Sequence record: PP047752
Length of the DNA: 64,000 bases
Reading direction: 5' to 3' (one strand)
Source: Escherichia phage KEP2
Shown here: piece by piece, positions 2,418 to 57,165 of the stretch
How the letters are laid out: each line of letters starts with the position of its first letter
Position numbering within the stretch: position 1 is the stretch's first letter
Translations under genes and position numbers: made by a program
The notes under the pieces: generated by a model
Told to the model about the DNA's origin: nothing
Seen by the model: the letters and a program-made list of their open reading frames with translations, nothing else
Databases searched by the model: none

Positions 2418-2459
2418 GTTGACAAAGTACTTGACAAGGTGTAGGCTTATAAATACTTA
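2418..2459 (+). promoter_or_regulatory. tandem TTGACA boxes (GTTGACAAAGTACTTGACAAGGTGT), candidate promoter or regulator site in divergent intergenic region
   Basis: Two TTGACA hexamers 6 nt apart; nearly identical 25-mer recurs at 41868-41892. Confidence 0.4.
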
Positions 2460-2568
2460 GAAGATAACTTAAAAGGTTCCTCTAAAAAGGCTATTTAAAC
2501 AGATATCTTTCTGGATATCTATCTTTTATCTTAAAAGCCTTTTAAGAGGTCTTATAAGAGGCATACCA

Positions 2569-2940
2569 ATGAAAAACAGAACAAACAAAGGCCAGTTTAA
2601 AAAAGGCCAGTCTGGAAACCCATCTGGAAGACCAAAAGGCTCTCGTAACAAAAGCTCACTTGTAAAAGCTCAACTGACCATTGATAATTCTGCTGAGTTT
2701 GCTGCAAAGTTGTTTGAAGCGATTGTTACAAGGGACGCTGCTAAGCTTGCAGAGTTCGGGTTAAACACAGATGACGTAACCATCAAGAGCATGATTGAGG
2801 TCGGTAAAACTATCTTTACTCACTCAGCAGGTGAGATGAAAGCACTTGCAGCAGACACTAAGAAGACTCCTGATAATGGTGGTCAGTCACAGACAGATAA
2901 CAAACCAACGTTCTCTGCTGTAGCGACTCTCAAAAAATAA
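2569..2940 (+). CDS. hypothetical protein with Gly/Pro/Lys-rich N-terminus (GNPSGRPKGSRNK)
   Basis: 123-aa ORF downstream of promoter-like region. Confidence 0.5.
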   Translation: MKNRTNKGQFKKGQSGNPSGRPKGSRNKSSLVKAQLTIDNSAEFAAKLFEAIVTRDAAKLAEFGLNTDDVTIKSMIEVGKTIFTHSAGEMKALAADTKKTPDNGGQSQTDNKPTFSAVATLKK

Positions 2941-2952
2941 TTTTAAAAGGTG

Positions 2953-2988
2953 TTGACAGACTCTACAAAGTTACTCTAAAGTCTGTCA
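2953..2988 (+). promoter_or_regulatory. TTGACA box inside a 9-bp inverted repeat (GACAGACTC…AGTCTGTC), promoter/operator candidate upstream of 3022 gene
   Basis: TTGACA at 2953-2958; palindrome arms at about 2955-2963 and 2981-2988. Confidence 0.35.
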
Positions 2989-3021
2989 CATCAAACAACA
3001 AATGAGAGAAGAGAGTAAAAT

Positions 3022-4437
3022 ATGAGCGAATTATTTAAACATGCGCACCTTCATGCAGGTCGAACTGAAAATGGTGCTGTAAACCATACTTCATCAATGT
3101 CTGCTCTGGTAGACTTCTACAAAGCCGCTGGCTCAAGCCGTAGCAATGTAGAAATTTTACCAGACCTGTTCTACAAAGCTTTGCGTGAGGATGTTGATGT
3201 TGCAGTTCGTATTTTACTGCATATGCGAGATGTAAGAGAAGGTATGGGTGAGCGTAAAGCTTTCCGAACTGTTTTACTTCAAGCGATTGAAGATAAAGTT
3301 TTAGAACCTACACAGGTTCTTCGCATTATGGATAAGATTGCAGAGCTTGGTCGTTTTGATGACTTCAAAATCTTCGTAGGTACTCGTTTTGAGACAGATG
3401 CCTTCAAACATTTAGAAGCAGCATTACTAGACCCTGCAACAGCAGGTTTAGCAGCTAAGTGGTTACCACGAGTAAAACCACGCCACAAACAGTTTGTAAA
3501 ACGTTTCTGTAAGTTTGCAAACTTAAGTGAGAAGGAGTATCGCACACTGTTATCTGCACTGTCTGATACAGTTGAGCAAAAAATCTCTGCTAATGAGTTT
3601 GGTAAGATTGACTACAGCAAGATTCCTTCACTCGCTGCTGCACGTTACCAAAAGCTCTTTAACCGTAAAGATGGGGAACGTTACAAAGCTTACATTGAGT
3701 CCCTCTCAAAAGGTGAGGCTAAGATTAACGCTGGTGCTGTTTACCCATACGATGTGATTAAATCTATCAAGTATGGTAATGCAGATGTTGCTAATGAGCA
3801 GTGGAAAGCACTACCAAACTGGATGGCAGATGGTGAAAACATCTTGTGTATGACTGATGTTTCAAGCTCAATGTCTTGGGTGAATCTTGGTTCAATCACT
3901 GCCCTTGATATTGGTGTATCACTTGCCTTGTATGTAGCAGAACGCAATACAGGTTGCTTTAAGAATGAGTTAATGGTTTATTCAACAAACCCTCACTTCA
4001 TCGAACTGAGTGGTGATTTACGAAACCGTCATCGTCAGGTAATGCGTCATGTTGAATATGGCTCAACTAACTTACAAGCAGCTTTTGACCGCATTCTTGA
4101 GATAGGTAAGAGAAACAACTTGACTCAGAAAGATATGCCAAGTAAGCTTATCATCTTCTCTGATATGGAGTTTAATCAGGTTGATGGTGCAAATGGTCGT
4201 ACAAACTTTGAAGCAATTCAGAGTAAGTACAAAAAAGCTGGATACGAAATGCCACAACTAGTATTCTGGTACTTAGCAAACCGTAATGGTACTTGCGAAG
4301 TATCTGTTAAGGATAATGGTGTAGCAATGGTATCAGGGTTCTCTCCAGCCACTTTAAAAGCTCTGCTTGGTGGTGAGAAGTTTGACCCAATCAGCGTAAT
4401 GCTCAAAGCAGTAATGATTGACCGTTACATCTGGTAA
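3022..4437 (+). CDS. vWA-domain protein, candidate Ro60/Rsr-like (TROVE-vWA) RNA-binding protein
   Basis: 471 aa; MIDAS-type D-x-S-x-S (MTDVSSSMSW) and downstream LIIFSDMEF motif resemble the Ro60 vWA domain as I recall it; helical N-terminal ~270 aa; lies just upstream of tRNA/Y-RNA-like cluster. TROVE assignment is not verified. Confidence 0.45.
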   Translation: MSELFKHAHLHAGRTENGAVNHTSSMSALVDFYKAAGSSRSNVEILPDLFYKALREDVDVAVRILLHMRDVREGMGERKAFRTVLLQAIEDKVLEPTQVLRIMDKIAELGRFDDFKIFVGTRFETDAFKHLEAALLDPATAGLAAKWLPRVKPRHKQFVKRFCKFANLSEKEYRTLLSALSDTVEQKISANEFGKIDYSKIPSLAAARYQKLFNRKDGERYKAYIESLSKGEAKINAGAVYPYDVIKSIKYGNADVANEQWKALPNWMADGENILCMTDVSSSMSWVNLGSITALDIGVSLALYVAERNTGCFKNELMVYSTNPHFIELSGDLRNRHRQVMRHVEYGSTNLQAAFDRILEIGKRNNLTQKDMPSKLIIFSDMEFNQVDGANGRTNFEAIQSKYKKAGYEMPQLVFWYLANRNGTCEVSVKDNGVAMVSGFSPATLKALLGGEKFDPISVMLKAVMIDRYIW

Positions 4438-4455
4438 AAAGTTTTAAAAAGGGTA

Positions 4456-4484
4456 TTGACAATGTGTTTGATACCCTTTAATAT
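4456..4484 (+). promoter_or_regulatory. sigma70-like promoter (TTGACA-17-TAATAT) leading the tRNA array
   Basis: TTGACA 4456-4461, 17-nt spacer, TAATAT 4479-4484; flanked by GGGTAT/ATACCC inverted repeat. Confidence 0.55.
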
Positions 4485-4546
4485 GTTCTACATAGAAACG
4501 AAATGAGAGCTTTTCTAAGATACTGAAAAATATTTTAAAAAAGTTC

Positions 4547-4580
4547 TTGACAACCACTAAAAAATAATGTTAAAGTGGTT
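4547..4580 (+). promoter_or_regulatory. second TTGACA box with ACCACT/AGTGGT inverted repeat
   Basis: TTGACA 4547-4552; weak -10 candidates; palindrome arms 4553-4558 and 4575-4580. Confidence 0.35.
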
Positions 4581-4602
4581 ACATAGAGTTTGAAAAGTTT
4601 AT

Positions 4603-4679
4603 CTCTGTTTAGCTCAGCTTGGTAGAGCGTTCCGTTTGGGGCGGTAAGGCCGGAGGTTCAAGTCCTCCAACAGAGACCA
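4603..4679 (+). tRNA. tRNA-Pro (anticodon TGG)
   Basis: Acceptor complementarity, TAGCTCAG D-arm, anticodon loop TTTGGGG, T-arm GGAGG-TTCAAGT-CCTCC. Confidence 0.7.
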
Positions 4680-4686
4680 AATTAAT

Positions 4687-4764
4687 GTTCCAGTAGACAA
4701 AATGGTAAAGTCACCACTCTTTCAAAGTGGATATTTGAGGGTTCAAATCCCTTCTGGAACGCCA
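4687..4764 (+). tRNA. tRNA-Glu (anticodon TTC)
   Basis: Acceptor GTTCCAG/CTGGAAC, anticodon stem CCACT/AGTGG with loop CTTTCAA, T-loop TTCAAAT, CCA encoded. Confidence 0.7.
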
Positions 4765-4771
4765 GTTTTGA

Positions 4772-4844
4772 CAGAAGACCAATTACAGCAAACTTAATCT
4801 TATTCATCTGACACGAAATCGGACAAAGAAGAGGTTTGGTCTGG
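4772..4844 (+). repeat. hairpin module A of CAGAAGACC…GGTCTGG family
   Basis: 5' CAGAAGACCAA pairs with 3' TTGGTCTGG; CAGCAA box in loop. Confidence 0.5.
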
Positions 4845-4855
4845 TCATTAAGAAT

Positions 4856-4932
4856 TGCGGGTATAGAGAAAGGGCGTCTCACATGTCTCATTAGCATGGT
4901 ATCGGCAGGTTCGACTCCTGCACCCGCCTCCA
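4856..4932 (+). tRNA. tRNA with anticodon CAT (Met or Ile2)
   Basis: D-stem GAGA/TCTC, anticodon stem CATGT/GCATG with loop CTCATTA, T-arm GCAGG-TTCGACT-CCTGC, CCA encoded; one acceptor mismatch. Confidence 0.55.
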
Positions 4933-4938
4933 ATTTTG

Positions 4939-4998
4939 CAGAAGACCGTATTCAGCAACAAAATACTTTTTGCGGATAAAAGAAAAAACACGGTCTGG
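4939..4998 (+). repeat. hairpin module B of CAGAAGACC…GGTCTGG family
   Basis: 5' CAGAAGACCGT pairs with 3' ACGGTCTGG (compensatory change relative to A and C); CAGCAA box. Confidence 0.5.
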
Positions 4999-5009
4999 CA
5001 ATGTATTAA

Positions 5010-5086
5010 GGTTAGGAAGCACATAAGGTATGTGCGGTCGCCTGTTAAGCGAATGGCACAGGGTTCGAATCCCTGACTAACCGCCA
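5010..5086 (+). tRNA. tRNA-Asn (anticodon GTT)
   Basis: D-stem GCAC/GTGC, anticodon loop CTGTTAA, T-arm CAGGG-TTCGAAT-CCCTG, CCA encoded. Confidence 0.7.
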
Positions 5087-5701: not shown

Positions 5702-5776
5702 TGTGGGTTAGCATAAATGGTAATGCAAACGGCTGATAACCGTTAGAAGAGGGTTCGATACCCTCACCTACAACCA
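5702..5776 (+). tRNA. tRNA-Ile (anticodon GAT)
   Basis: D-stem GCAT/ATGC, perfect anticodon stem AACGG/CCGTT with loop CTGATAA, T-arm GAGGG-TTCGATA-CCCTC, CCA encoded. Confidence 0.75.
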
Positions 5777-5791
5777 ATTTCAATAAAGTTG

Positions 5792-5820
5792 TTGACATTG
5801 AGATGTGACCACTTTATAGT
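5792..5820 (+). promoter_or_regulatory. sigma70-like promoter (TTGACA-17-TATAGT) inside the tRNA array
   Basis: TTGACA 5792-5797, 17-nt spacer, TATAGT 5815-5820. Confidence 0.55.
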
Positions 5821-6113
5821 AACTAAAATACTTCATAATATGTATAATTCAAACACCAATACATGAGCGTTAGACGTAACACAATGTGGGGAAATTTGTT
5901 GTACATATTCTGAATAGTTTTCGTTGCGTAGCGTCTATTTTGCAAATTTAAAATAAATGCAAACGACAATGTTTTTCTGGCAGTAGCTTGATAGGCTAAA
6001 CACCAGTGAGGTCTTCCAATCCCTCATCAAAGAATTTGGCGTACTCGCCCACGGTATGATTAATAAGGTGGGCATCTTTAAGGGCTTTCTAAGAGAGTCT
6101 TTAAAGATAATTA

Positions 6114-6195
6114 CGGGGCGTATCTCAGCGGTCTTCTAAACCGCCGTTAACCGAGTAAGTGGAGTATGCGGGTTCGAGTCCTGCCGCCTCGACCA
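6114..6195 (+). tRNA. atypical tRNA-like element (T-arm, acceptor and TCT anticodon-like loop; no recognisable D-arm)
   Basis: Acceptor CGGGGCG/CGCCTCG plus CCA, T-arm GCGGG-TTCGAGT-CCTGC, stem-loop GCGGT-CTTCTAA-ACCGC; 82 nt. Confidence 0.4.
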
Positions 6196-6209
6196 ATTTT
6201 GGAGAAATC

Positions 6210-6557
6210 ATGAAAACTTGTATTAGGTGCAAACTTAGCAAGGATGAAAATGATTTCTACATGAAAGATGGTAAGAGAACTCATTCATACTGTAAAAAGT
6301 GTGTTAATGAGCAAACCATAGAAAGACAAAGAGCACTTAAACTTTCAGCTATTGAGTACAAAGGTGGGGTTTGTCATGATTGTGGTAAAAGGTATCATCC
6401 AGCAGTGTATGACTTCCATCATTTGAATCCTTCAGAGAAAGATTTTAACATTGGTCATAGAAAAAGTCTGAAGTTCTCTCAAGAACTAAAAGATGAACTT
6501 GACAAATGTGTTTTGCTATGTTCAAATTGCCATAGGGTAAGACATGCAAAGTATTAG
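6210..6557 (+). CDS. HNH homing-endonuclease-like protein
   Basis: CxxC…CxxC zinc pairs and HH…N…CH motif (YDFHHLNP…CSNCHRVRH); start taken at ATG 6210 because track start 6159 overlaps the tRNA-like element. Confidence 0.7.
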   Translation: MKTCIRCKLSKDENDFYMKDGKRTHSYCKKCVNEQTIERQRALKLSAIEYKGGVCHDCGKRYHPAVYDFHHLNPSEKDFNIGHRKSLKFSQELKDELDKCVLLCSNCHRVRHAKY

Positions 6558-6694
6558 TTAGCAGATTGCTTAGACGACCTTATCGGGTCTCCGTGTAAGG
6601 AGGTGGTCTGTATCTCATGTTTTCCAGAACATGTAAATAATCTGAGAAGGGGCTTTACAGTGTTGCGAAAATACGGTAAGCTTCGAATTATAGT

Positions 6695-6776
6695 GTGGGA
6701 CGATGTTAAGACTCTAAGGCATGAGCAACGGCCTCCAAAACCGTTTCAAAGTGGTTCAACTCCTCCGTCCCATGCC
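6695..6776 (+). tRNA. tRNA-Trp-like (anticodon CCA), atypical length
   Basis: Acceptor GTGGGAC/GTCCCAT plus CCA, anticodon loop CTCCAAA; D-region too long for a canonical fold. Confidence 0.4.
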
Positions 6777-6790
6777 AAAGTCTTATTAGG

Positions 6791-6878
6791 GGTAGGTAGC
6801 GGCTAATGGTAGCCAAACTGTCTTGAAAACAGTTGCCACTGTAGAGATACGGTGAGGGTTCGACTCCTTTACTTACCG
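6791..6878 (+). tRNA. tRNA-Ser (anticodon TGA), long variable arm
   Basis: Acceptor GGTAGGT/ACTTACC, anticodon stem ACTGT/ACAGT with loop CTTGAAA, ~20-nt variable arm, T-loop TTCGACT. Confidence 0.6.
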
Positions 6879-7135
6879 CCTAATAAGATTTAAAGCCAAG
6901 CTTCATTCGGATGTTGCTTTGGTATCCCTCGTGTATTGTCGTACACACTGATAAAGCACCTAGTAGGTGTCACGGAGAAGAGATAATATCAAGCTCTCCA
7001 AAGGTTCTAGTCACCGGATTAAACAAGACTATGCAAAGACCAATTTAGGTCTTTTTAGAGGGCTTCTAAGGTTATTACAGCTTGTTGTGGAACCTTGTTG
7101 CTTAGGTTCTTAGAAGTTCTCTAAAAAGATTTAAT

Positions 7136-7212
7136 GCACCTATAGCCCAACTGGTAGAGGCAGCAGACTTAGAATCTGCTCAGTGTGAGTTCGAATCTCT
7201 CTAGGTGTACCA
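7136..7212 (+). tRNA. tRNA with anticodon TAG (Leu codon CUA) but short variable loop
   Basis: Acceptor GCACCTA/TAGGTGT plus CCA, 6-bp anticodon stem AGCAGA/TCTGCT with loop CTTAGAA, T-loop TTCGAAT. Confidence 0.5.
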
Positions 7213-7219
7213 AATTAAT

Positions 7220-7295
7220 GCAGGTGTAGCAAAATGGTTATGCGGCTGACTCTTAATCAGTAAGACGATGGGTTCAATTCCCTCCACCTGTACCA
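7220..7295 (+). tRNA. tRNA-Lys (anticodon CTT)
   Basis: Acceptor GCAGGTG/CACCTGT, anticodon loop CTCTTAA, T-loop TTCAATT, CCA encoded; paralogous to 5543-5618. Confidence 0.6.
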
Positions 7296-7301
7296 AACAT
7301 T

Positions 7302-7377
7302 GGGGATGTAGTTTACATGGTTAAAACATAAGTTTTGCAAACTTAAGTACAGGGTTCAATTCCCTGCTTCTCCACCA
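7302..7377 (+). tRNA. tRNA-Ala (anticodon TGC)
   Basis: D-stem GTTT/AAAC, perfect anticodon stem TAAGT/ACTTA with loop TTTGCAA, T-arm CAGGG-TTCAATT-CCCTG, CCA encoded. Confidence 0.7.
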
Positions 7378-7459
7378 ATTAGTGCATCCATAGTTTAAAT
7401 GGGAAAATTACAGTCTTCCAAACTGAGGTTGAGGGTTCGATTCCCTCTGGATGCTCCAA
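7372..7459 (+). repeat. 88-bp perfect direct repeat, copy 1 (contains tRNA-Gly)
   Basis: Identical to 7785-7872 by direct comparison. Confidence 0.85.
7384..7458 (+). tRNA. tRNA-Gly (anticodon TCC), copy 1
   Basis: Perfect acceptor GCATCCA/TGGATGC, anticodon loop CTTCCAA, T-arm GAGGG-TTCGATT-CCCTC, CCA encoded. Confidence 0.75.
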
Positions 7460-7465
7460 ATTAAT

Positions 7466-7541
7466 GCTCCTATCGTATAATTGGCTATTACGGTTGCCTT
7501 GTAAGCAACTTATCAGGGTTCGAATCCTTGTGGGAGCACCA
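7466..7541 (+). tRNA. tRNA-Thr (anticodon TGT)
   Basis: Acceptor GCTCCTA/TGGGAGC, perfect anticodon stem GTTGC/GCAAC with loop CTTGTAA, T-loop TTCGAAT, CCA encoded. Confidence 0.7.
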
Positions 7542-7543
7542 AT

Positions 7544-7632
7544 TCAGAGGTCAAGTGAAAGACCGCTGGTGTCAACTGAAGACCGTAACAAATTCCACGG
7601 AGTTGAGTTAGCGGCACAACTTCAGACCTCTT
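7544..7632 (+). ncRNA. structured spacer, candidate small RNA related to the AGACC hairpin family
   Basis: Outer stem CAGAGGTC/GACCTCT, inner pairings CTGAAG/CTTCAG and CCGCT/AGCGG; contains CTGAAGACCGTAACAAATT resembling the 5' box of modules A-D. Confidence 0.3.
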
Positions 7633-7636
7633 TCAT

Positions 7637-7711
7637 ACTCGCTTAGTTTATATGGTAAAACACCACCCTTACAAGATGAAGAAAAAGGTTCAAGTCCTTT
7701 AGTGAGTACCA
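7637..7711 (+). tRNA. tRNA-Val-like (anticodon TAC), weak anticodon stem
   Basis: Acceptor ACTCGCT/AGTGAGT plus CCA, D-stem GTTT/AAAC, T-arm AAAGG-TTCAAGT-CCTTT; only 3 of 5 anticodon-stem pairs. Confidence 0.45.
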
Positions 7712-7712
7712 T

Positions 7713-7790
7713 GTTCCAGTATCCCAATTGGCAGAGGATGCAAGCTCAAACCTTGTATTAGTGACGGTTCGAATCCGTCTTGGAACACCA
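7713..7790 (+). tRNA. tRNA with anticodon CAA (Leu codon UUG) but short variable loop
   Basis: Acceptor GTTCCAG/TTGGAAC plus CCA, anticodon stem GCAAG/CTTGT with loop CTCAAAC, T-arm GACGG-TTCGAAT-CCGTC. Confidence 0.5.
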
Positions 7791-7872
7791 ATTAGTGCAT
7801 CCATAGTTTAAATGGGAAAATTACAGTCTTCCAAACTGAGGTTGAGGGTTCGATTCCCTCTGGATGCTCCAA
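7785..7872 (+). repeat. 88-bp perfect direct repeat, copy 2 (contains tRNA-Gly)
   Basis: Identical to 7372-7459. Confidence 0.85.
7797..7871 (+). tRNA. tRNA-Gly (anticodon TCC), copy 2
   Basis: Sequence identical to 7384-7458. Confidence 0.75.
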
Positions 7873-7895
7873 GTTATTTTACTCTCTCTCAATTA

Positions 7896-7968
7896 AAATA
7901 ATAATAATGCCCTGCTATAAGTATTCTTCCTTTCGCTACCGAAGAGTATTTTTAGACAGGGCTTTTTT
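7896..7968 (+). terminator. compound hairpin plus T-run at end of tRNA array
   Basis: GCCCTG…CAGGGC arms followed by TTTTTT. Confidence 0.45.
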
Positions 7969-8033
7969 ACAGAGTTATACTTTATAAGAAGACTTATACA
8001 GTATGTCTCTGACGTACATTGTGGTTTCTCCTT

Positions 8034-8057
8034 GACGGTCTCTGTACCGTCTTTTTT
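8034..8057 (+). terminator. rho-independent terminator-like hairpin
   Basis: GACGGT-CTCTGT-ACCGTC followed by TTTTTT. Confidence 0.55.
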
Positions 8058-8093
8058 AAGGAGAAACATGGTTAATTATTTGGAGAAAACATA

Positions 8094-8294
8094 ATGAGCG
8101 AGACCGTTTATAAAGAACTTTATGAAGCTAATAAGAAGCTAGAATTTATGCAGAATACTATCATGGCAATTGCAGATAGATTGTCTGTAGCAACAGGTAT
8201 TGATATCAAAGAAGCCTCTATGGATGCACTCCTTGATGCTGTTGATGCAAAGTTCGAAGTTAAGAAAGAAGAGACTGCTACAGACTCTGAATAA
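8094..8294 (+). CDS. hypothetical protein (first gene of morphogenesis module)
   Basis: 66-aa ORF preceded by GGAGAAA RBS. Confidence 0.45.
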   Translation: MSETVYKELYEANKKLEFMQNTIMAIADRLSVATGIDIKEASMDALLDAVDAKFEVKKEETATDSE

Positions 8295-8315
8295 TTCTAT
8301 TTGCGGAGGTGCTTA

Positions 8316-9917
8316 ATGGACTTAAATGCTGTTAAGCAGAAGCGAGTGGAAGATGTTAGGAAAGTCCTAGCTGGAGAGTTGGGGCTTTCTGATGAAGTAA
8401 AAGAAATTATCAAATCATTCGGTAAAGACCCCTCTAAATTCCTTCCAACTCAAATTCTGACTTTATTAAGATACACACCAGACCAAGTTAGACTTATCTT
8501 CAAATTGATGACTGATAAGAACTATGTAGCCCCTCAGCCGGGTTCTCAAGAGGTCTTTTTAAATACTAATGCTGACTTGGTTCTCTATGGTGGTGCTGCT
8601 GGTGCTGGTAAAACTGCTGCATTGTTAATGGACTCTTTAAGGTTTATTGAAGACCCTAACTATAATGCTGTATATTTCCGTCGAAATACAACACAGTTAC
8701 AAGGTGGTTTATGGCCTGCTGCAAAGAAACTATTTGGTAAGTTTGGTGGGGTTCCTCACGAGCAGAAGATGACTATCACATTCCCTTCTGGGGCAACTAT
8801 CAAGTTCACCTACCTAGAACTTGAAAAGCACGCTGAAGGCCATCAGGGTATTGAATACTCAGCTATCTACTTTGACGAAGGTACACACTTCTCTGCTTCA
8901 CAGATTTCATACCTACAGACCCGTCTACGTTCTGGTGCTGAAGGTGACTCATACATGAAGATTTCTATGAACCCAGATAGAGACCACTTCATTTATGATT
9001 GGGTAGAACCCTTCTTAGATGAAGAGGGTTACCCAGACCCTGAGAAGTGCGGTCGTATTCGTTGGTATGTTATGAATGATGGTGTGATGGTTTCTGATTG
9101 GGAGAGAGACAAGATTCTTGAAATGTTCCCTCTTGAGATTCCCCAGACATACACCTTCATCTCTGGTACGATTGATGATAACCCAATTCTTGACTTCTTA
9201 GAACCTAAATACCGTGGTAAGTTGGAAAACAACACACCTGTAAACGTTGCAAGACTTCGTTTCGGTAACTGGAAGGCTCGTGCAGAAGGTTCAAACTATT
9301 GGCAAAGACAATGGTGTGAGATTGTTGATTCACTCCCAGAAGATGTGTTTGATGTCAGAGCATGGGACTTAGCAGCAACTTTACCATCTGAGATTAACCC
9401 TAATCCAGACTGGACAGCGGGTGTTAAGATGGGTAAATCTAAAAAAGACGGTTGCTATTATATCATTGATGTAGTAAGATTTAGAGATAGACCCTCTGGA
9501 GTCGAAACACAAATTAATTTGACTGCTGAAAGTGACGGTAAGCGAACTGGTATTTTTATCCCTCAAGACCCAGGCGCTGCTGGTAAATCCTATGCAACAT
9601 CCCTCATCAGGAAACTTGCCGAGAAAGGTTATCGCGCAAGAGCTAAACCAACAAATAAAGATAAAGTTACCCGCTTTGCGGGATTTTCTGCTGCTTCTGA
9701 AGCTGGACTTGTAAAAGTCTTGAGAGGTAGTTGGAACGAAGCTTATTTCCAAGAACTTGAAGGTTTTTGTGGTGATGGCAAAACTAAAGATGACCAAGTG
9801 GATGCTACCAGTGATGCTTTCAACAGTCTTAATGAAGTTAAATTATTCAAGCCACCATCAATGGGTGCTCACACAGACTTAGTGAGAGGAAACCCATATG
9901 AGGGGCTTAGACGTTGA
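8316..9917 (+). CDS. terL: terminase large subunit
   Basis: Walker A LYGGAAGAGKT; size and position ahead of portal; start moved to ATG 8316 (RBS GGAGG at 8305-8309). Confidence 0.85.
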   Translation: MDLNAVKQKRVEDVRKVLAGELGLSDEVKEIIKSFGKDPSKFLPTQILTLLRYTPDQVRLIFKLMTDKNYVAPQPGSQEVFLNTNADLVLYGGAAGAGKTAALLMDSLRFIEDPNYNAVYFRRNTTQLQGGLWPAAKKLFGKFGGVPHEQKMTITFPSGATIKFTYLELEKHAEGHQGIEYSAIYFDEGTHFSASQISYLQTRLRSGAEGDSYMKISMNPDRDHFIYDWVEPFLDEEGYPDPEKCGRIRWYVMNDGVMVSDWERDKILEMFPLEIPQTYTFISGTIDDNPILDFLEPKYRGKLENNTPVNVARLRFGNWKARAEGSNYWQRQWCEIVDSLPEDVFDVRAWDLAATLPSEINPNPDWTAGVKMGKSKKDGCYYIIDVVRFRDRPSGVETQINLTAESDGKRTGIFIPQDPGAAGKSYATSLIRKLAEKGYRARAKPTNKDKVTRFAGFSAASEAGLVKVLRGSWNEAYFQELEGFCGDGKTKDDQVDATSDAFNSLNEVKLFKPPSMGAHTDLVRGNPYEGLRR

Positions 9918-34641: not shown

Positions 34642-34971
34642 TTAATCTGCCAACCTTAAATTAAAATTAACACCAAATTTTTCACATACTTCCAACATAT
34701 ACTCAAGGGAGACATTACCAGTGAGGTGGATTATGTTGGATACACGAGCCTGAGAGATACCACAAATTTTAGCAACTTGCTCTTGAGAAAGACCTCTGGA
34801 TTTAATCTCTCTCTTAAAACGATGTGCAACAAAATCTCTCATTTCGTCTACATCCATTGGACAAATATAACTCTCCATTTCAGCCTCTCTGTCAGCCTCC
34901 CAATCATCTTGTGGAGCATAAGGGTCAAAAACCTCATTCATCTTTCTTCTTCCGTTTGCGTGAAGTATCAA
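34642..34971 (-). CDS. helix-turn-helix protein (XRE-like)
   Basis: LSQEQVAKICGISQARVSNI HTH-like segment. Confidence 0.45.
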   Translation of the reverse strand: MILHANGRRKMNEVFDPYAPQDDWEADREAEMESYICPMDVDEMRDFVAHRFKREIKSRGLSQEQVAKICGISQARVSNIIHLTGNVSLEYMLEVCEKFGVNFNLRLAD

Positions 34972-35531: not shown

Positions 35532-35963
35532 AATGACCTCAAAGTTATATTAAATTTTGTATTACATTGAGTATAAAAATAAGCTATAACACCTGACTTG
35601 TCAACAGATTTTATAGCTTATTTGGCAGATTTTTTATAAGGCTACTGCCATCCTTCCATACCAGACTACACCATGCCAGACCAGACTTCACATCACCTTA
35701 CCGTGCAATACATTACTTAAAAACCCTCTTAAAAGACTCTTAAGTGATGCTGGTGAGTACCCGTTGGTCTATACTGCTCAGTATACTCACCAAATTTTCT
35801 ATGTCAACAACTTTTATATAAAAGTACTGATAGCTATATGTGTTACAAAACAGAAGATTGTGAACAAGACACCCATTGCAAAGGATGTGTTCAAAAGCTT
35901 ACTTGTGATGTAAGACAACACAAAGATAACTAATGCAAATAGTATGATTATGCTTAGCATAGT

Positions 35964-38841: not shown

Positions 38842-39047
38842 AGCAAATTCTCGATGTCTACACGTTCACCTTTTAAGTACCCTGTCTTGTCTTTTGCGAT
38901 TTTCCCTCCAGCAATAAAGATATCTGCTATACGCAGAGCTTCAGGGTTTACTCTATAACCACTGCAAATAACAATAAGCATGTCTTCAATCTCTTTTTGA
39001 GAATAACCTGCACATTGCAACTGAACTTCAATCTCTGAAAGCGTCAT
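38838..39047 (-). CDS. small protein, paralog pair member 2
   Basis: …GGKIAKDKTGYLKGERVDIE…. Confidence 0.45.
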   Translation of the reverse strand: MTLSEIEVQLQCAGYSQKEIEDMLIVICSGYRVNPEALRIADIFIAGGKIAKDKTGYLKGERVDIENLL

Positions 39048-39108
39048 GTGACCTCCTATACAAGATACAGTATAAGGTACTCTTCCATGAGCACCTTGTC
39101 AATACTAA

Positions 39109-41808
39109 TTAGTGTACTTCAAGCCAGCTTTTACCAACCTTACCAGTACCTGTTACAAGTGTTTCTTTCTTAAGACCTAAGTTCTTAGAAGCTTGTCCAT
39201 AATACCAGTCAGTAACTGCTTTCACTTCTGCCGTCATACTTTCTGGACATTCCCAGCTTGTTTCATCGTGATATGCGCAGAGCAAACGAGCACCAATAGC
39301 TGGTTTACGACCATTTAACTTCATCAAACCTTCGTCAATCATACGACGACAAGCAAGGTTAATTGCCTCATTTTGAATCTGAGCCTCTGAACCCATCAAA
39401 AGATAGTTCAACAGTTTGTGTGGAGATTTACACCACAACCAAGCTCCAGCAACCTTTACAAATCCCCCTTTAGAGATTGCAGCGGTCTTACCAAAAACCT
39501 CTTCAAGTGCCTTTTTAGTCGCTTTGTAGTCAGCTTCCAAGTCATCTAGCAACTTCTTAATTTTAGGCAAACGAATAAAGTAAGTCTGTTTAGTCAGTGC
39601 ACCTTCCTGAGTAGTTGCAGCTTTAATTGTCTTAGCAAACTTCTCATCACCTGCACCGAACAGCAGTGCATAGATACCATTCTTAGCTTTTTTACGACCC
39701 TTACTAATCTCATGGAGAAGATTCTCATCCTGAGTGGCTCGACAAGTCAAGATATCCTGCTCATCATTCAAGCTAAAGTAAATACTGTTCAGTGTGTGTG
39801 CATCAGTCCCTGAATAGACAACGTACAGGTCATTCTCAGAGTCATAGCGGAGGTACTTATCAATCTCTGGGTTGAGGTACTCATCAAAGTGTTTGCAGTA
39901 ATAGCGTCCATCTTCTTGACGAATAAACTCAATCTCTTCTTTACCTTGCGTTACCGCTTTGGTGAAGTCTTTGTCACCCATAAAGTTACAAAGGAGAACT
40001 AGCTGGGCTGAGTTCATGTCTACAGAGACAACATTAGTACCTTCTTCACAAATCCACACTGCCCTCATTGGTTCCCCATAGACAGCAGCACCAGACGGTA
40101 CGTTTACAATACCATATTGTGTCATACGTCCAGTTGAAGTACCAAATACCATTGCACCAGCACTAAGGCGACCATCTGGACGAATCTGGTTTAGCCAACC
40201 TTTTTCATCATCCTTTGAGTTCTCAATAGTTCTGCGTCTGTGCATCAAAGTATAGTACTTAGCAATCTTCTGTCCAAGCTCACCTTCAATCGTATCATAA
40301 GATGATTCAGTAAGTTTTGGTGAAGTACGGATTAAGCAAGGCTCAAGCAAATCTGTGTACTTCTTCACAGACCAGTTATGCTCGATGTACTGTACACCTT
40401 CATGTTCAACATAACTCAAACCACACCGCTCAACCATTTCCTGCCACTTAGGATGCTTTGTAATCATCTTTTTATTGTCTTTGAAACGACAAACTTTGAC
40501 AGGGCGACCGTCTGAATCTTTCTTGTAGTTCCAGTCATCTGGAATCCAACCAACTGATTTCAAGTAGTCTTTAACAACTGCTACCTGAGTCATACGAGAA
40601 ACTTCAAACTCAATTGGTGTATATGGTGCATCAATCAATCCTGTGTAGCGACTTGACTCAAGCTCAAAGTGGTTAACAACATGACTGTTATAGTACTTCA
40701 CAGTTTTAACTGTTTTTACTGGCTTCCAGTCTTTGCATTTCTTACCAATCTTTGCATTCAACTCATTGCAAATTGCACGAGCATCCTTCATTGCTACAAA
40801 ACCTTCCTTGTACTCTTCACCAGTTACAGAGTTGGTTGGTGTATAGCAATTTCTCTTTTCAATGTTAAAAATCTTTGTAGTTGGCTTACCAAATGGCTTG
40901 ATTTCATATGTCTGCATCTCACCGTTACGTACCTGCTGACGATACTTTGTCTTAGGGTACTTGGTAATTCTCTTCAGTCCATCTGCGTGACCAAATGCTT
41001 CAACATACTCATTCCAAGCTTTTGCAAACTCTTCTCCAGTGACTTTACCTTTGGTCTTGATAGTTGGTGGAAGGTGTGGTTCAACTTCTGAAGCAAGCTC
41101 ATTAGTCAGCTTGTCAAGTTCCTTTACATGGAACTCCATAAGCTCTTTATCAGCTTTCCAACCATTGATAGCCTGTTGACTCATCCAGAAAGATGTTTCT
41201 TTAGCTCGCATGTAGGTTTCATAAGTATCTATGCCACACTTCTTCAGCTTGAGATATTCATTATCCAGTGCGCGTTTAGTTTTGGCGTTAATACGGATAT
41301 CTTCCACAACACGAGTGAAGATTTCTGCATTCCACACACCCCAATGTTCAATCTCTGGTTTACGTACACCAACACGAGCACCCCATGCTGCCAAGCCATG
41401 AGCACCTTTATAACCTTTTGGAGTTGGTCTATCCATCCACTGAACACGAGACTGGATAAGAGAATCCTGAAAGAAATTACTCCACGGCTTACACTTTGGA
41501 TTATCAAAGTTCCACAAATCAGGTGCAATGTGATTGAAAACCCACCAGTCATACCCCAGACCATTATGGATGCAGAGTCGTTTTGCCTTTAACGCAAACT
41601 CAATGCCTTCACGTAAGCCACCCTTAATGTACTTGGTATACTTGTGACCGAGGATAGGTTCATCTGTAAAGACCCATACAGGCGGCTCTTCATCGTCAGA
41701 TTTATAGTCTGCGAAAGCCATTACGTGCACTTTAGTGAACTCAAGGAGTAAACCATCAGTTTCTGTATCACCAACTAAATGTAAGTTTTTAAAATCTACG
41801 TTTTCCAT
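39109..41808 (-). CDS. family-A DNA polymerase with 3'-5' exonuclease domain
   Basis: Exo motif VGDTETDGL; pol motifs KKAKNGIYALLFGAG and CAYHDE; start taken at second ATG (41808) which has GGGAG RBS; track start 41838. Confidence 0.9.
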   Translation of the reverse strand: MENVDFKNLHLVGDTETDGLLLEFTKVHVMAFADYKSDDEEPPVWVFTDEPILGHKYTKYIKGGLREGIEFALKAKRLCIHNGLGYDWWVFNHIAPDLWNFDNPKCKPWSNFFQDSLIQSRVQWMDRPTPKGYKGAHGLAAWGARVGVRKPEIEHWGVWNAEIFTRVVEDIRINAKTKRALDNEYLKLKKCGIDTYETYMRAKETSFWMSQQAINGWKADKELMEFHVKELDKLTNELASEVEPHLPPTIKTKGKVTGEEFAKAWNEYVEAFGHADGLKRITKYPKTKYRQQVRNGEMQTYEIKPFGKPTTKIFNIEKRNCYTPTNSVTGEEYKEGFVAMKDARAICNELNAKIGKKCKDWKPVKTVKTVKYYNSHVVNHFELESSRYTGLIDAPYTPIEFEVSRMTQVAVVKDYLKSVGWIPDDWNYKKDSDGRPVKVCRFKDNKKMITKHPKWQEMVERCGLSYVEHEGVQYIEHNWSVKKYTDLLEPCLIRTSPKLTESSYDTIEGELGQKIAKYYTLMHRRRTIENSKDDEKGWLNQIRPDGRLSAGAMVFGTSTGRMTQYGIVNVPSGAAVYGEPMRAVWICEEGTNVVSVDMNSAQLVLLCNFMGDKDFTKAVTQGKEEIEFIRQEDGRYYCKHFDEYLNPEIDKYLRYDSENDLYVVYSGTDAHTLNSIYFSLNDEQDILTCRATQDENLLHEISKGRKKAKNGIYALLFGAGDEKFAKTIKAATTQEGALTKQTYFIRLPKIKKLLDDLEADYKATKKALEEVFGKTAAISKGGFVKVAGAWLWCKSPHKLLNYLLMGSEAQIQNEAINLACRRMIDEGLMKLNGRKPAIGARLLCAYHDETSWECPESMTAEVKAVTDWYYGQASKNLGLKKETLVTGTGKVGKSWLEVH

Positions 41809-41867
41809 TTTTACTCCCTCTAAAATCATTAACCTCATACATTACTGCAAAAAATTATAAAAAGCAA

Positions 41868-41892
41868 GTTGACAATGTGCTTGACAAGGTGT
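41868..41892 (+). promoter_or_regulatory. tandem TTGACA boxes (GTTGACAATGTGCTTGACAAGGTGT) in divergent intergenic region
   Basis: 23 of 25 nt identical to 2418-2442. Confidence 0.4.
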
Positions 41893-42065
41893 TAATCTTT
41901 GCGAAGTGGGTTTTTACTTAAAAGGTTACTTAACAGTTTAACTATACAGATACTTTAAAACTCTTAAAAGATTATTTAATAGCTTTTAAAAAGCTTTAAA
42001 GTATAACGTATAGAATACGTTAAGATAAAAGATTAAAACTTAATAGTTACTTAAAAGAGGCTTAC

Positions 42066-53447: not shown

Positions 53448-54517
53448 TTAACCAACACCCAATCTTTTTAGGTGGTGAGAGAAAAACATTCGACTCACTT
53501 AATAAGCACTACCCAAAAATCTTTGAGCTATATAAACAACAAAAAGCACAAGACTGGTCAGAAGATGAGTTCCCTTTTGAACAATCACGCCTTGATTTTG
53601 AGAGTGTACCAGCATCAATGTCAGGTGTAATGCTTGAGATTCTTAAGTGGCAGTGGGAAGCAGATACCCAAGTTGCTAAGAGCTTAGCGTTTGCCTTTGC
53701 GCCATTCATCTCTGATGACATTTATGCAACTGCAATTATGAAGCAGTCTGAGATTGAAAACCTACATGCTCTTACTTACTCGGAGATTGTAAGACAATGT
53801 ATTAAAAATCCTGAAACAATCTTAGATGAGATTAACCAGAACATTGCTGTACAAGACCGATTAAAAACTGTGAATCGTGTTCTTGAAGAATTACTAGATG
53901 AAGGTATAAACTATCGTCTGAGTTATGTCCGTGACTCACTTCTGGACAAAGACCCTTTACACTTCCATAAAGTGATTCTAAAAGGTCTATTTGCAGTGAC
54001 TGCACTTGAAGGTATTTCTTTTATGGCATCCTTTGCATGTACTTTTGCACTTGATGCTCAAGATAAATTTCAAGGTATTGCTCAAGCTGTCCAGAAAATT
54101 ATGCTTGACGAAATCCTTCACACTAAAATTGATATTGAAGTTTTAAAAGAAACTTTAAGAGATGATGAGTGGCAAAAAGCTTTCCAACAAATTCTTCCAG
54201 AGATTAAAGTAATCTTAGATGAAGTAGTTGAAAGTGAAGAGAAATGGTCGTATTATATCTTCTCCGAAGGACGTGCTGTAGTTGGGTTAAATACAAAGCT
54301 TCTTCATGAGTGGGTTTACTACAATGCTGCCCCACTGTATGATATGTTTGGCATTCCCAGAGATTTTGTAGCTCCTAAAGAACCACCTTTGAAGTATATG
54401 ATTAAGAAGATGGAAATTGATAAAGAGCAGAATGCTAATCAGGAGCAACAGAACGGTGCGTACTTATTGAATACTGTTGTAGATGATTTGAATAGTGGAT
54501 TTTTAGAGGTTCCTTAA
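53444..54517 (+). CDS. nrdB: ribonucleotide reductase class Ia small subunit
   Basis: Follows nrdA; start moved to ATG 53444 (MINQHP…) with RBS AAAGGAGAAA. Confidence 0.8.
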   Translation: MINQHPIFLGGERKTFDSLNKHYPKIFELYKQQKAQDWSEDEFPFEQSRLDFESVPASMSGVMLEILKWQWEADTQVAKSLAFAFAPFISDDIYATAIMKQSEIENLHALTYSEIVRQCIKNPETILDEINQNIAVQDRLKTVNRVLEELLDEGINYRLSYVRDSLLDKDPLHFHKVILKGLFAVTALEGISFMASFACTFALDAQDKFQGIAQAVQKIMLDEILHTKIDIEVLKETLRDDEWQKAFQQILPEIKVILDEVVESEEKWSYYIFSEGRAVVGLNTKLLHEWVYYNAAPLYDMFGIPRDFVAPKEPPLKYMIKKMEIDKEQNANQEQQNGAYLLNTVVDDLNSGFLEVP

Positions 54518-54759
54518 TGACTTATGTAATTTACTCCAAAACTGGATGCCCTCAGTGTGAGACTGCAAAGAATTTTGCGAAAGCTCGTGGTATTGACCAT
54601 GTTGTGAGAATGTTAGGGCAGGATTATGAACTGTCAGACCTGATGGATATTGCACAGATGCCAGTTCGTCAGATGCCATTCATCATGAAAACTGACGGTC
54701 AAAACCTAAAACCTGTTGGAACGCTACAGAACTTCATGGCAGAGGTGAATAATGCTTAA
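54517..54759 (+). CDS. nrdH: glutaredoxin-like protein (NrdH-type)
   Basis: CPQC redox motif near N-terminus; 80 aa; follows nrdB. Confidence 0.6.
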   Translation: MTYVIYSKTGCPQCETAKNFAKARGIDHVVRMLGQDYELSDLMDIAQMPVRQMPFIMKTDGQNLKPVGTLQNFMAEVNNA

Positions 54760-54958
54760 ACGCCTTTGGGAAGGTTTGGTTGTTGATGCACCAGCTATTG
54801 TGATTGGTATGCTTGTTGTTAACCTATTTACTGATTTTGAACAAGGTTCATTGTTTGGAGCCATGTTACTATGGGTTATCTTTGAAATATTAGAAATACA
54901 GTTATGTATCACTGAAAAACTAAGAGAACTCTTTTCGAAGTTTTCTAAAAAGATTTAA
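54752..54958 (+). CDS. small membrane protein
   Basis: 68 aa, hydrophobic. Confidence 0.35.
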   Translation: MLKRLWEGLVVDAPAIVIGMLVVNLFTDFEQGSLFGAMLLWVIFEILEIQLCITEKLRELFSKFSKKI

Positions 54959-54964
54959 AATGAA

Positions 54965-54987
54965 AGGGTCTCTTCGGAGACCTTTTT
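54965..54987 (+). terminator. rho-independent terminator
   Basis: GGGTCTC-TTCG-GAGACC followed by TTTTT. Confidence 0.6.
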
Positions 54988-55006
54988 AGCATGTAAAGGG
55001 GCAATA

Positions 55007-57151
55007 ATGAACAAAGTACAAATTATTAAAAAGAATGGCTCACTTGAAGAACCGGATATCAAAAAAGTTTTAGCAGCAGTAACTAAGTCAGCTAACAGAG
55101 TTGGGTATAAAGAACTTCCACCAGATGTTACCCAAGCTCTTGAGTCAGCATTTATGAGGATTCTAGTAAAGTCCACTAAGCAGAATAACTTACTTATCTC
55201 GGTAAATGATATCCACAGTATCGTTGAAGGTGCTTTGGCAGAAGTCAATCACGAGATTTATGAGTCTTACTCAACATACAGAAATTACCGTAAAGAGGTT
55301 GCTCAAAATTGGGATGAGCTTTACCAAAAGACCAGAGACACACTCTTCTTAGGTGACCGTGAAAATGCTAACTTTGACAGTAGTTTAATTTCTACAAAAG
55401 GTTCAATTATTCGTGGTTATCTGACTAAAGAAATCTTTAAACAGTACCATTTAACACCAGAGGAACTTGAATCCATTGAAAAAGGGTTTATCTATATCCA
55501 CGATTTAAGAGACCTGATTTTTTGTGGTATTAACTGTTGCTTGTTTGACATTGGTAAAGTACTGGAAGGTGGCTTTGAAATGTCTGGCATCGAATACTGT
55601 GAACCAAAGTCTGTACTGTCAGCCTTACAAGTTATCGGTGATGTAGTTCTTTCAGCAACTGCACAGCAATTTGGTGGATTTACTTTAGCAGAGATTGACA
55701 AGGTGCTTGTACCGTATGCTAAGAAGTCTCTACGCTATCATGCTGAGAAAGCAGCATCTTACGGTATTCCTAAAGAACATTACCATAACTATGTCATGGA
55801 GCAGCTACAGATTGAATTAACTCAAGGCTTCCAGTCACTAGAGATGAAACTAAATACTGTACCTTGCAGCCGTGGTGATTTTGCATTCACAACTTTAACA
55901 TTTGGTTTACTTGACTCAGATATGTCTAATGAAGACAACCGGCTACAATACATGATTGCAAACACCATTCTTGATGTTCGCATGAATGGACAAGGTAAGA
56001 GTAAGAAGCCTGTTGTATTCCCTAAACTGGTTTATATTCATGACCAGAAGAGACACGATGAGAATATCTGTCAAGGCCAACTGTACAGTAAAGCTATTGA
56101 GTGTTGCTCTAAAGCAATGTATCCAGATTTCTTAAGCGTATCTGGTCATGGTGCTGTAGCAGAGGCTTTTGAGCGTTCTGGCAAGGTAATTTCACCGATG
56201 GGTTGCAGAGCTTTCTTATCCCCATATCTTAACGAGAATGGAGAAGAGTTCTACGTTGGACGTGCTAACATTGGTGCTGTATCTTTGAACTTGCCAATGA
56301 TTTACCAGTATTCTAAAGAGAATGGTTTAGATTTCTGGAAAGAGCTTGATAAGTACCTAGAGATGATTCGCAGCTTCCACAAGAAACGCTACGAAATGAT
56401 TGCTAATATGCCAGCAAGTTCTAACCCTCTTGCATTCACACAAGGTGGTCTGTACAAAGGGACTAAGAAACCTACTGACAAGGTTGGTTGGGATATCGTG
56501 AAGTCCTTCACAGCTTCTTTTGGGGTTACTGCGCTTGATGAGCTGTCTGTTCTTGCTGAAGGTAAACGACTCCATGAAGTTGGAAGCTACAGTTTTGCAT
56601 ACGATGTTCTGGCATACATTAACATGAAAACTGAAGAGTTTAAGAATGAAGATGGCTTCTTATATGCTGTCTATGGTACTCCAGCAGAATCACTTTGCGG
56701 AACTCAGCTAAAACAGTTCAGAGATATGTTTGGCGTTATCAAAGGTGTTTCTGATAAGGAATACTTTACAAACAGTTTCCATATGAATGTTGCAGCAGAC
56801 ATCTCACCATTTGAGAAGCAGGACTTAGAAGAGCCATTCTTCCATATCTGTAGAGGTGGTAGAATCCAGTATGTCAGAGTAGCTAACCCAGAAAACTTAC
56901 CAGCACTTAAAAGTTGTATTACCAGAGGGATGTTGAAGGGTTTTTATCAGGGACTTAACTTTGACTTAGCAATCTGTGAGCATTGCGGTAACAGACCAAA
57001 GGCTGATGTTGAAGAATGTGAGGTTTGCCATTCACATGATATCTCTGTGATTAACAGGGTGTGTGGTTATCTTGGATGGACTAAGATTAAAGGTGAATCC
57101 CGAATGAACGATGCAAAAATCGCTGAGATTCGTGACAGGATTTCTATGTAA
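55007..57151 (+). CDS. nrdD: anaerobic ribonucleoside-triphosphate reductase
   Basis: C-terminal glycyl-radical motif RVCGYLG and CxxC zinc site (CEHCG…CEVC). Confidence 0.85.
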   Translation: MNKVQIIKKNGSLEEPDIKKVLAAVTKSANRVGYKELPPDVTQALESAFMRILVKSTKQNNLLISVNDIHSIVEGALAEVNHEIYESYSTYRNYRKEVAQNWDELYQKTRDTLFLGDRENANFDSSLISTKGSIIRGYLTKEIFKQYHLTPEELESIEKGFIYIHDLRDLIFCGINCCLFDIGKVLEGGFEMSGIEYCEPKSVLSALQVIGDVVLSATAQQFGGFTLAEIDKVLVPYAKKSLRYHAEKAASYGIPKEHYHNYVMEQLQIELTQGFQSLEMKLNTVPCSRGDFAFTTLTFGLLDSDMSNEDNRLQYMIANTILDVRMNGQGKSKKPVVFPKLVYIHDQKRHDENICQGQLYSKAIECCSKAMYPDFLSVSGHGAVAEAFERSGKVISPMGCRAFLSPYLNENGEEFYVGRANIGAVSLNLPMIYQYSKENGLDFWKELDKYLEMIRSFHKKRYEMIANMPASSNPLAFTQGGLYKGTKKPTDKVGWDIVKSFTASFGVTALDELSVLAEGKRLHEVGSYSFAYDVLAYINMKTEEFKNEDGFLYAVYGTPAESLCGTQLKQFRDMFGVIKGVSDKEYFTNSFHMNVAADISPFEKQDLEEPFFHICRGGRIQYVRVANPENLPALKSCITRGMLKGFYQGLNFDLAICEHCGNRPKADVEECEVCHSHDISVINRVCGYLGWTKIKGESRMNDAKIAEIRDRISM

Positions 57152-57153
57152 AA

Positions 57154-57165
57154 CTTGACAAGGTG
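57154..57165 (+). promoter_or_regulatory. third copy of CTTGACAAGGTG motif
   Basis: Same 12-mer as at 2430-2441 and 41880-41891. Confidence 0.35.

Follow-up and report, generated by a model that had tools for sequence, protein, structure and literature searches.

Probable -35 boxes of host-type promoters behind a repeated TTGACA motif in a Felix O1-like phage

Why should a long motif built around TTGACA recur almost letter for letter in widely separated intergenic regions of one phage genome? The question is raised by Escherichia phage KEP2 (PP047752), of which a stretch of 64,000 nucleotides, hereafter the window, was analysed. An initial annotation of this DNA had noticed a 25-mer at 2418-2442 (site 1) and 41868-41892 (site 2) as well as its 12-nucleotide core at 57154-57165 (site 3), and had suggested a phage-specific promoter class or the binding site of a regulator. 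The phage belongs to Felixounavirus, and both 25-mer regions match more than 250 phage records, nearly all of them Felix O1-like myoviruses with a handful of exceptions, the 100% matches including UAB_Phi87, SME50, and SP3_SHan. Felix O1-like phages are widely used in Salmonella and E. coli typing and biocontrol, and the timing of their transcription is stated in two genome papers as not understood. The motif is probably the -35 hexamer, with its flanks, of promoters read by the unmodified host sigma-70 polymerase, and is largely ordinary on that account.

The two 25-mers, GTTGACAAAGTACTTGACAAGGTGT at site 1 and GTTGACAATGTGCTTGACAAGGTGT at site 2, lie where the initial annotation had placed them and are identical at 23 of 25 positions, and the single 12-mer reported for site 3, CTTGACAAGGTG, was likewise found there. 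With gene numbers assigned by comparison with the annotated Felix O1 genome, site 1 falls in the divergent region between genes 40 and 41 and site 2 in that between genes 96 (DNA polymerase) and 97, which bears out the divergent intergenic setting claimed for both. Site 3 directly follows the stop codon of nrdD (gene 117), between genes on the same strand and on a terminator hairpin; unlike the other two, this third location is no divergent module boundary. All three of the copies first noted are real, but two others had been overlooked, namely site 4 (ATTGACAAGGTG, 39092-39103 on the minus strand), which is intergenic and just 3' of the DNA polymerase gene, and a related copy with the variant ATGTG (ATTGACAATGTG, 4455-4466; the 4456 site) in front of the array of transfer RNA (tRNA) genes. 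The 12-mer is identical at three sites and matches in 11 of 12 bases at the fourth.

A motif search of the kind that the initial annotation had proposed was run over the whole window, and a chance origin of the repeats was ruled out by shuffle statistics. The degenerate 25-mer has two matches against 0.00 expected from shuffles; the 12-mer with up to two mismatches has 17 against 7.2, a count reached by no shuffle; and TTGACAANGTR has eight against 0.57. Seven of these eight copies are intergenic, in a window whose intergenic share is about 7%, and all eight are co-oriented with the genes. Plain TTGACA is not enriched in the window (76 observed, 68 expected). The copy inside the nrdD coding sequence is probably a chance occurrence outside the system.

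The initial annotation had taken the TTGACA hexamers for -35 boxes and had found the -10 hexamers at 17 bp to be weak. The former view is supported, for the hexamers stand at the heads of transcription units in the right orientation, behind A-tracts at sites 1, 2, and 4456, with conservation across genera and with TAnnnT at 17-18 bp; all six bases of TTGACA are present at 2419, 2431, 4456, 41869, 41881, 57155, and 39102(-). The latter view holds when one counts from the downstream hexamer of each 25-mer, where 16-18 bp further on no -10 with A at -11 and T at -7 is present (TACTTA and AAGTGG are found instead), and fails when one counts from the upstream one, from which TAGGCT and TGtTAATCT are in place at sites 1 and 2. 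Measured from the upstream or only hexamer, such a -10 occurs at all five sites (sites 1-4 and the 4456 site), with TAnnnT at 17-18 bp at every intergenic site examined. Placing the -35 box at the upstream hexamer of each 25-mer thus removes most of the difficulty over the -10. A-tract, UP-like DNA lies just upstream of 2419 (at 2408-2415), 41869, and 4456. When 127,938 positions of the window were ranked with a simple sigma-70 position-weight matrix, the five motif promoters came within the top 0.05% (individual ranks in Table 1), and the two downstream hexamers ranked 1290 and 3930. The downstream hexamer was therefore rejected as a working -35, there being no TAnnnT 16-18 bp beyond it in any genus. 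The elements fit the host sigma-70 pattern, and nothing in them demonstrates or calls for the phage-specific promoter class or regulator site first suggested.

At sites 1 and 2, then, the upstream hexamer would be the working -35, placed behind A-tract UP-like DNA and followed by a weak but correctly placed -10 at 17-18 bp (TAGGCT at the one, TAATCT with TGn at the other). The rightward promoter at site 1, P41, would serve genes 41-42 and the tRNA array, and that at site 2, P97, also rightward, would serve gene 97 and the genes of replication and nucleotide metabolism, each of them standing back to back with a predicted leftward promoter. The second hexamer would lie in the spacer at about -23 to -18, conserved yet without a promoter of its own. 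Two other readings of these loci were tried and discarded: a sequence resembling a T4 late promoter, TATAAATA at 2448-2455, reads AATAAAAC in SUSP1, and bidirectional use of TTGACAA/TTGTCAA is not general because site 2 has no other-strand candidate to match the one at site 1.

Conservation was followed by aligning the two divergent regions of the window with those of Felix O1, SUSP1 (Suspvirus), and Mordin and ESh21 (Mooglevirus), together with two Erwinia phages and one Pectobacterium phage. At site 1 the window, Felix O1, SUSP1, and Mordin show no change in either hexamer, and the tandem of site 2 is kept in SUSP1, Mordin, and ESh21. Across Felixounavirus, Suspvirus, and Mooglevirus, both hexamers and the proposed -10 are retained while the six nucleotides separating the hexamers vary at four to five positions. 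The -10 of site 1 reads TAG(G/C)CT in four genus-level representatives, and that of site 2 reads TGn followed by TA(A/G)TCT in all four aligned phages. The AGGTG that follows the second hexamer is invariant at site 2 and variable at site 1 (AGGTG, AGGTA, AGCTG, or ACGTG). In Kolesnikvirus, only one hexamer stands at each of these two loci, followed 17 bp later by an ordinary -10 (TTGACA-N17-TACATT at the site 2 locus and TTTACA-N17-TACACT at the other divergent locus).

Pairs of TTGACA 12-13 bp apart number three each in the complete genomes of Felix O1, SUSP1, and Fifi318 (Kolesnikvirus) as opposed to 0.1-0.2 expected. The third pair of Felix O1 and SUSP1, present also in the examined part of Mordin, is upstream of the gene 22 homologue, and at these Felix-type tandem loci TAnnnT lies at N17-18 from the upstream member, the downstream member being without a -10. 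Sites 1 and 2 and the gene 22 promoter share AyTTAAAAGG some 25 nucleotides after the -10 and look paralogous, as their long and similar leaders suggest. A scan of viral contigs (IMG/VR) for the tandem pattern returned mostly chance or unrelated matches; when the 94 distinct contexts from non-Felix viruses were compared, the distance of TAnnnT from the upstream hexamer had a sharp peak at N17 (26 cases, 20 of which carry TG at -15/-14), and its distance from the downstream hexamer a smaller one at N17-18 (12 cases). The 26 cases are not independent because many come from one homologous locus next to g55 of T4-like marine phages, and these statistics speak for the upstream-hexamer geometry but give no reason for the retention of the second hexamer.

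The copies at 57155, 39102(-), and 4456 appear to be composite cassettes, in which a hairpin lies between or over the -35 and the -10. It is envisaged that the hairpin stops or stabilises the incoming transcript and that a new transcript, covering the next gene, begins at the promoter. The AAGGTG of the motif forms the base of the stem at 57155 and 39102(-), where gene insertions or replacements abut the cassettes. The site 3 hairpin has 16 pairs, a loop of four, and the tail TTTATTT (free energy -23.5 kcal/mol, z -5.5), thus having the form of an intrinsic terminator, in which a G+C-containing hairpin is followed by a T-run. It is annotated as a terminator in phage Mordin, and the three substitutions in its stem among four phages are all switches between Watson-Crick and G-U pairs. 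At site 4, which stands upstream of a gene starting at 39047(-), the hairpin is AAGGTGCTC-ATGGAA-GAGTACCTT, running from 39097 to 39074 (free energy -15.8, z -2.4). The 4456 site was called both promoter-like and terminator-like, its hairpin occupying 4448-4479 (z -2.6). Sites 1 and 2 gave no significant fold (z -0.95 and -0.70), and a search for known RNA families found tRNAs only. Further cassettes occur at 35604(-) in the window and abundantly in the Felix O1 early region, where they read CTTTACA-N17-TAAAGT with a GGGGCTTA...TAAGCCCC stem.

From TTGACA through the Shine-Dalgarno, four phages are nearly invariant at sites 3 and 4, in contrast to the flanks. Identity with Felix O1 is 91.5% in the site 4 cassette, compared with 67.7% in the adjacent 3' end of the polymerase gene; the gene just 3' of the cassette in the window has no counterpart there in Felix O1, and an HNH gene is inserted immediately upstream of the site 4 hexamer in both Felix O1 and SUSP1. 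Likewise at site 3, a homing endonuclease gene sits immediately upstream in SUSP1, and homology with Felix O1 stops at 57205, where the cassette ends, to resume at 57581. These two single-copy cassettes are, to judge from such comparisons, local hot spots of gene turnover. The genes just 3' of them, 38843-39043(-) and 57206-57580(+), differ from those of Felix O1 and SUSP1.

Several considerations weigh against taking all of these sites as host-type promoters. The main weakness is that of the -10 boxes, which at sites 1-4 match the consensus at only three of six positions, for which reason a strict sigma-70 consensus scan (at least four of six per hexamer and nine of twelve overall) calls the 4456 site alone. 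The matrix rankings depend on base frequencies taken from published promoter compilations. The conservation of the second hexamer, as well as the identity of the 12-mer in all 12 bases at three sites, goes beyond what sigma-70 recognition needs, and the 12-mer does not keep one place relative to the proposed -10, lying in the spacer at sites 1 and 2 and at the -35 at sites 3 and 4. The identity is accounted for in part, in that GTG provides the TGn of site 2 and AAGGTG forms the stem at sites 3 and 4; a C before and an A after TTGACA are, moreover, common in strong promoters. We know of no described mechanism for a doubled -35 box. Site 3 could be a terminator only, because its proposed -10 lies inside the strong hairpin. 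Finally, the literature searched contained no transcription-start or transcriptome data for Felix O1-like phages, and a literature search for the motif itself gave no relevant match.

The alternative that survives best, doubtful as we hold it to be, is that the 12-mer, or the direct repeat of TTGACAA with its period of 12 bp, is the binding site of a phage or host DNA-binding protein that switches these promoters, which would then be either a separate temporal (middle) class needing help at the weak -10 or the object of a shut-off operator over the -35 or the spacer. It draws on the second hexamer, invariant in three genera at sites 1 and 2 without a -10 of its own, and on the near-perfect agreement of the 12-mer at its four sites; yet AGGTG varies after the second hexamer at site 1, the hairpin stem accounts for the conservation of AAGGTG at sites 3 and 4, and the upstream copies retain TTGACAA only. 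The -10 boxes of the motif promoters (TAGGCT, TACCTT, TAATCT) are also poorer than those of other intergenic TTGACA promoters (TATAGT, TAGAAT, TATACT). By reverse transcription polymerase chain reaction (Whichard et al.), the downstream open reading frames (ORFs) 41, 42, 93, 97-99, 120, and 122 peak at 25 min and the genes behind canonical cassettes (16, 20-22, 45, and 46) at 5 min, but of about 102 ORFs 59 belong to the 25-min class, and noise in the table shows in the capsid and tail genes placed in the 5-min class. A candidate for the protein is a small helix-turn-helix (HTH) product of 109 amino acids encoded at 34642-34971(-), matching HTH_3 and, below threshold, Sigma70_r4, whose gene Felix O1 and SUSP1 also have and Fifi318 lacks. 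Against it stand the longer palindromes that HTH dimers usually bind, the one tandem-hexamer promoter that Fifi318 still has without the gene, and the fact that the co-occurrence of gene and tandem amounts to one phylogenetic contrast. That temporal control in this phage group is called unsolved by two papers leaves room for such a factor.

A narrower form of the proposal, in which the second hexamer or the 12-mer is read by a phage factor, be it a DNA-binding regulator or a protein repositioning sigma region 4, seems to us slightly less likely again. If it were true, the three promoters with tandem hexamers, those of genes 22, 41, and 97, would together with the two AAGGTG cassettes constitute a phage-controlled temporal class, offering a first handle on timing in Felix O1-like phages that have neither an RNA polymerase of their own nor a known modifier. 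The consensuses of the host factors CRP, FNR, NrdR, DnaA, PhoB, and OmpR, compared informally, gave no fit.

It is improbable that the copies at 57155 and 39102(-) are RNA hairpins only, serving as terminators or 3'-end stabilisers around a TTGACA that has no promoter function. The strength, conservation, and T-run of the site 3 hairpin, its annotation in Mordin, and the position of the proposed 3/6 -10 boxes inside the hairpins would all suit such a role. TTGACA, however, lies outside the stem and is nonetheless invariant in four phages, and it forms the exact 5' edge of conservation, where both sites have independently received HNH genes. Conservation extends to the loops, beyond what a bare RNA stem would require; site 4 lacks a T-run; and the same 11- to 12-mer recurs at sites 1 and 2, where there is no hairpin.

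Least probable of all is that the copies are alike merely through common descent or recombination, with the cassettes as homology patches for module exchange (as has been proposed for their counterparts in T4-like phages) and the extra hexamer as a functionless relic, for although the leaders of sites 1 and 2 and of the early-region tandem are long and alike and sites 3 and 4 lie at mosaic junctions, a relic would decay, whereas both hexamers are invariant across three genera amid varying bases, and use in recombination is compatible with promoter function and probably dependent on it.

The host-type promoter reading yields a concrete promoter map for the main control regions, the predicted starts included, which is collected in Table 1.

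Table 1. Motif copies and the promoter and hairpin features predicted around them; rank is the position among 127,938 in the sigma-70 matrix ordering
Feature	Position	Strand	Rank	Remarks
Site 1 tandem, two TTGACA 12 bp apart	2419-2424, 2431-2436	+		gene 40/41 divergent region
P41 candidate -10, TAGGCT	2442-2447	+	16	17 bp after upstream hexamer; predicted start ~2454
Candidate gene 40 promoter, TTGACT-N17-TACCAT	2365-2393	-	21	back to back with P41; hexamers conserved
Candidate pre-tRNA promoter, TTGACA (4456-4461)-N17-TAATAT (4479-4484)	4448-4484	+	20	overlapping hairpin; predicted start ~4491
Site 4 cassette, hexamer 39102-39097, candidate -10 TACCTT 39079-39074 (N17), predicted start ~39067	39074-39103	-	24	
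Weak candidate DNA polymerase promoter, TTGCTT-N17-TAATGT	41839-41867	-	958	tentative; its -35 abuts that of P97
Site 2 tandem hexamers	41869-41874, 41881-41886	+		DNA polymerase/gene 97 divergent region
P97 candidate extended -10, TGtTAATCT	41890-41898	+	61	18 bp after upstream hexamer; predicted start ~41905; TG at -15/-14, not credited in the rank
ATTGACAAGGTG copy inside nrdD coding sequence	55694-55705	+	5655	missing from Felix O1
Site 3 promoter part, hexamer and candidate -10 TAGGCT (N18), predicted start ~57191	57155-57160, 57179-57184	+	31	
Site 3 terminator-like hairpin (57160-57195) with T-run	57160-57204	+		AAGGTG of motif is 5' stem base

The leftward candidate for the DNA polymerase gene retains AAGCAA and TA(A/G)(T/G)GT in the alignment. 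The longest ORF of that gene starts at 41838(-), and the ATG at 41808 has the sole good Shine-Dalgarno (GAGGGAG); the start used is 41808 in phage Mushroom and 41829 in Felix O1 and wV8, and 41808 is probably the true one.

Both rightward promoters are followed by AT-rich leaders of about 115-165 nucleotides (2455-2568 and 41899-42065). CTTAAAAG has 16 copies in the window against 5.1 expected, six of them in the two leaders. Perfect palindromes are found at 2501-2520 (AGATATC-TTTCTG-GATATCT) and 2529-2547 (TCTTAAAAG-C-CTTTTAAGA) in the first leader and at 41981-41995 (AGCTTTT-A-AAAAGCT) and 42005-42021 (AACGTAT-AGA-ATACGTT) in the second. The last of these is changed on both sides in Mordin (ATGTATAACATACAT), and TCTTAAAAG.CTTT.AAGA is retained even in Erwinia phage Fifi318. 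The palindromes may act as operator sites or form RNA structures. A protein of 471 amino acids, with DUF2828, DUF7788, and a weak VWA domain, is encoded at 3022-4437(+), in the interval separating site 1 from the tRNA array. RefSeq gives the name RNA-binding protein to the Felix O1 homologue, and the location of the gene beside an array of 16 tRNAs is suggestive.

Elsewhere in the window, a very good predicted promoter, AAAAGTTG-TTGACA-N16-TATACT, with its -35 at 35807-35802, is followed by some 170 nucleotides without an ORF (35625-35790, minus strand), after which comes a second promoter, in the promoter/hairpin cassette at 35604(-); the stretch may be a small non-coding RNA or a long leader. 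In Fifi318, at 75789 (L014 25789) and after the last early gene, TTGACA-TTCTAC-TTGACA-GGGGC-TAAAGT is enclosed by a GCCC/GGGC stem, and this tandem promoter candidate points into a stretch of about 1.4 kb without an annotated gene. Contigs of T4-like phages carry a conserved TTGACA-AAGTGC-TTGACA-AGTGn-TAnnnT in the short gap immediately preceding the late sigma gene g55, pointing away from g55 and antisense into the preceding ORF; it was seen at L081 1889-1967 and at about 30 other IMG/VR loci (for example L016, L026, L052, and L133).

How do these elements compare with systems already described? They are predicted to be host-type phage promoters and cassettes of known kinds. With the sigma-70 early promoters of coliphages, they share the perfect TTGACA -35, a spacer of 17-18 bp, a -10 having A at -11 and T at -7, AT-rich UP-like DNA before the -35, and their place at the start of the transcription unit; they differ in the weak -10 and in the second conserved -35-like hexamer in the spacer. 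Pieces had been covered by earlier annotation, namely P41 and the terminator t42 in Felix O1 (PMC3185647) and, in Mordin, the terminator of site 3. The P41 that Whichard et al. 2010 (PMC3185647) listed as a host-type promoter in Felix O1 is located at site 1, its upstream hexamer having been paired there with TATAGG at N15. That -10 reads TGTAGG in the window and is not conserved, whereas TAG(G/C)CT at N17 is, and the earlier assignment is corrected accordingly. Their report has nothing comparable in the 96-97 region, the home of site 2, and lists the counterpart of the 4448-4479 hairpin as t42. In a BPROM list for UAB_Phi87, nothing stands at site 1 (about 6.1-6.4 kb) among the rows listed, which pass from 5,726 to 9,709.

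In the lambda CII sites and the T4 MotA middle promoters, too, a weak -10 is accompanied by a conserved element at about -35 to -25, and the -35 is flanked or replaced by direct repeats; these systems control a temporal class. The lambda CII site is TTGC-N6-TTGC, with a period of 10 bp, and straddles a poor -35. A site of that type was rejected here, for the repeats of the window have a period of 12-13 bp and each unit is a perfect -35 in its own right; a MotA box (TGCTT at -30) was rejected as well, the box here being TTGACAAGGTG, which contains no TGCTT. Whichard et al. (PMC3185647) found no phage RNA polymerase or polymerase modifier in Felix O1, and two papers report no such modifiers in these phages; nor is a homologue of CII, MotA, or AsiA reported for them, no search for MotA or AsiA homologues having been made in the present work. 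The conserved doubled -35 box is the sole part of these observations that could grow into something larger.

The remaining copies find their closest parallel in T4-like phages, whose promoter-early stem-loop (PeSL) cassettes have been described by Arbiol et al. 2010 (PMC2839356) and Comeau et al. 2014 (PMC4122927). Sites 1 and 2 lack a stem-loop and are not of this type. The copies at 57155, 39102(-), and 4456 resemble PeSL in combining a sigma-70-like promoter with a stem-loop placed between its two boxes or overlapping them (57160-57195, 39097-39074, and 4448-4479), and those at 57155 and 39102(-) also in their position between an upstream stop codon and a downstream Shine-Dalgarno and start, in their repetition within the genome, and in the small ORFs or homing endonuclease genes inserted or replaced directly beside them. 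They differ in belonging to the subfamily Ounavirinae instead of the T4-like phages, and in a stem of AAGGTG...CACCTT in place of Gn...Cn. No paper describing PeSL-like cassettes in Ounavirinae was found in the literature. The likeness lies in sequence and predicted structure; for the T4-like cassettes, reporter assays and inverse PCR were employed by Arbiol et al. 2010. The promoter-plus-hairpin design of T4-like phages thus appears to be present in this subfamily too, where it coincides with mosaic junctions.

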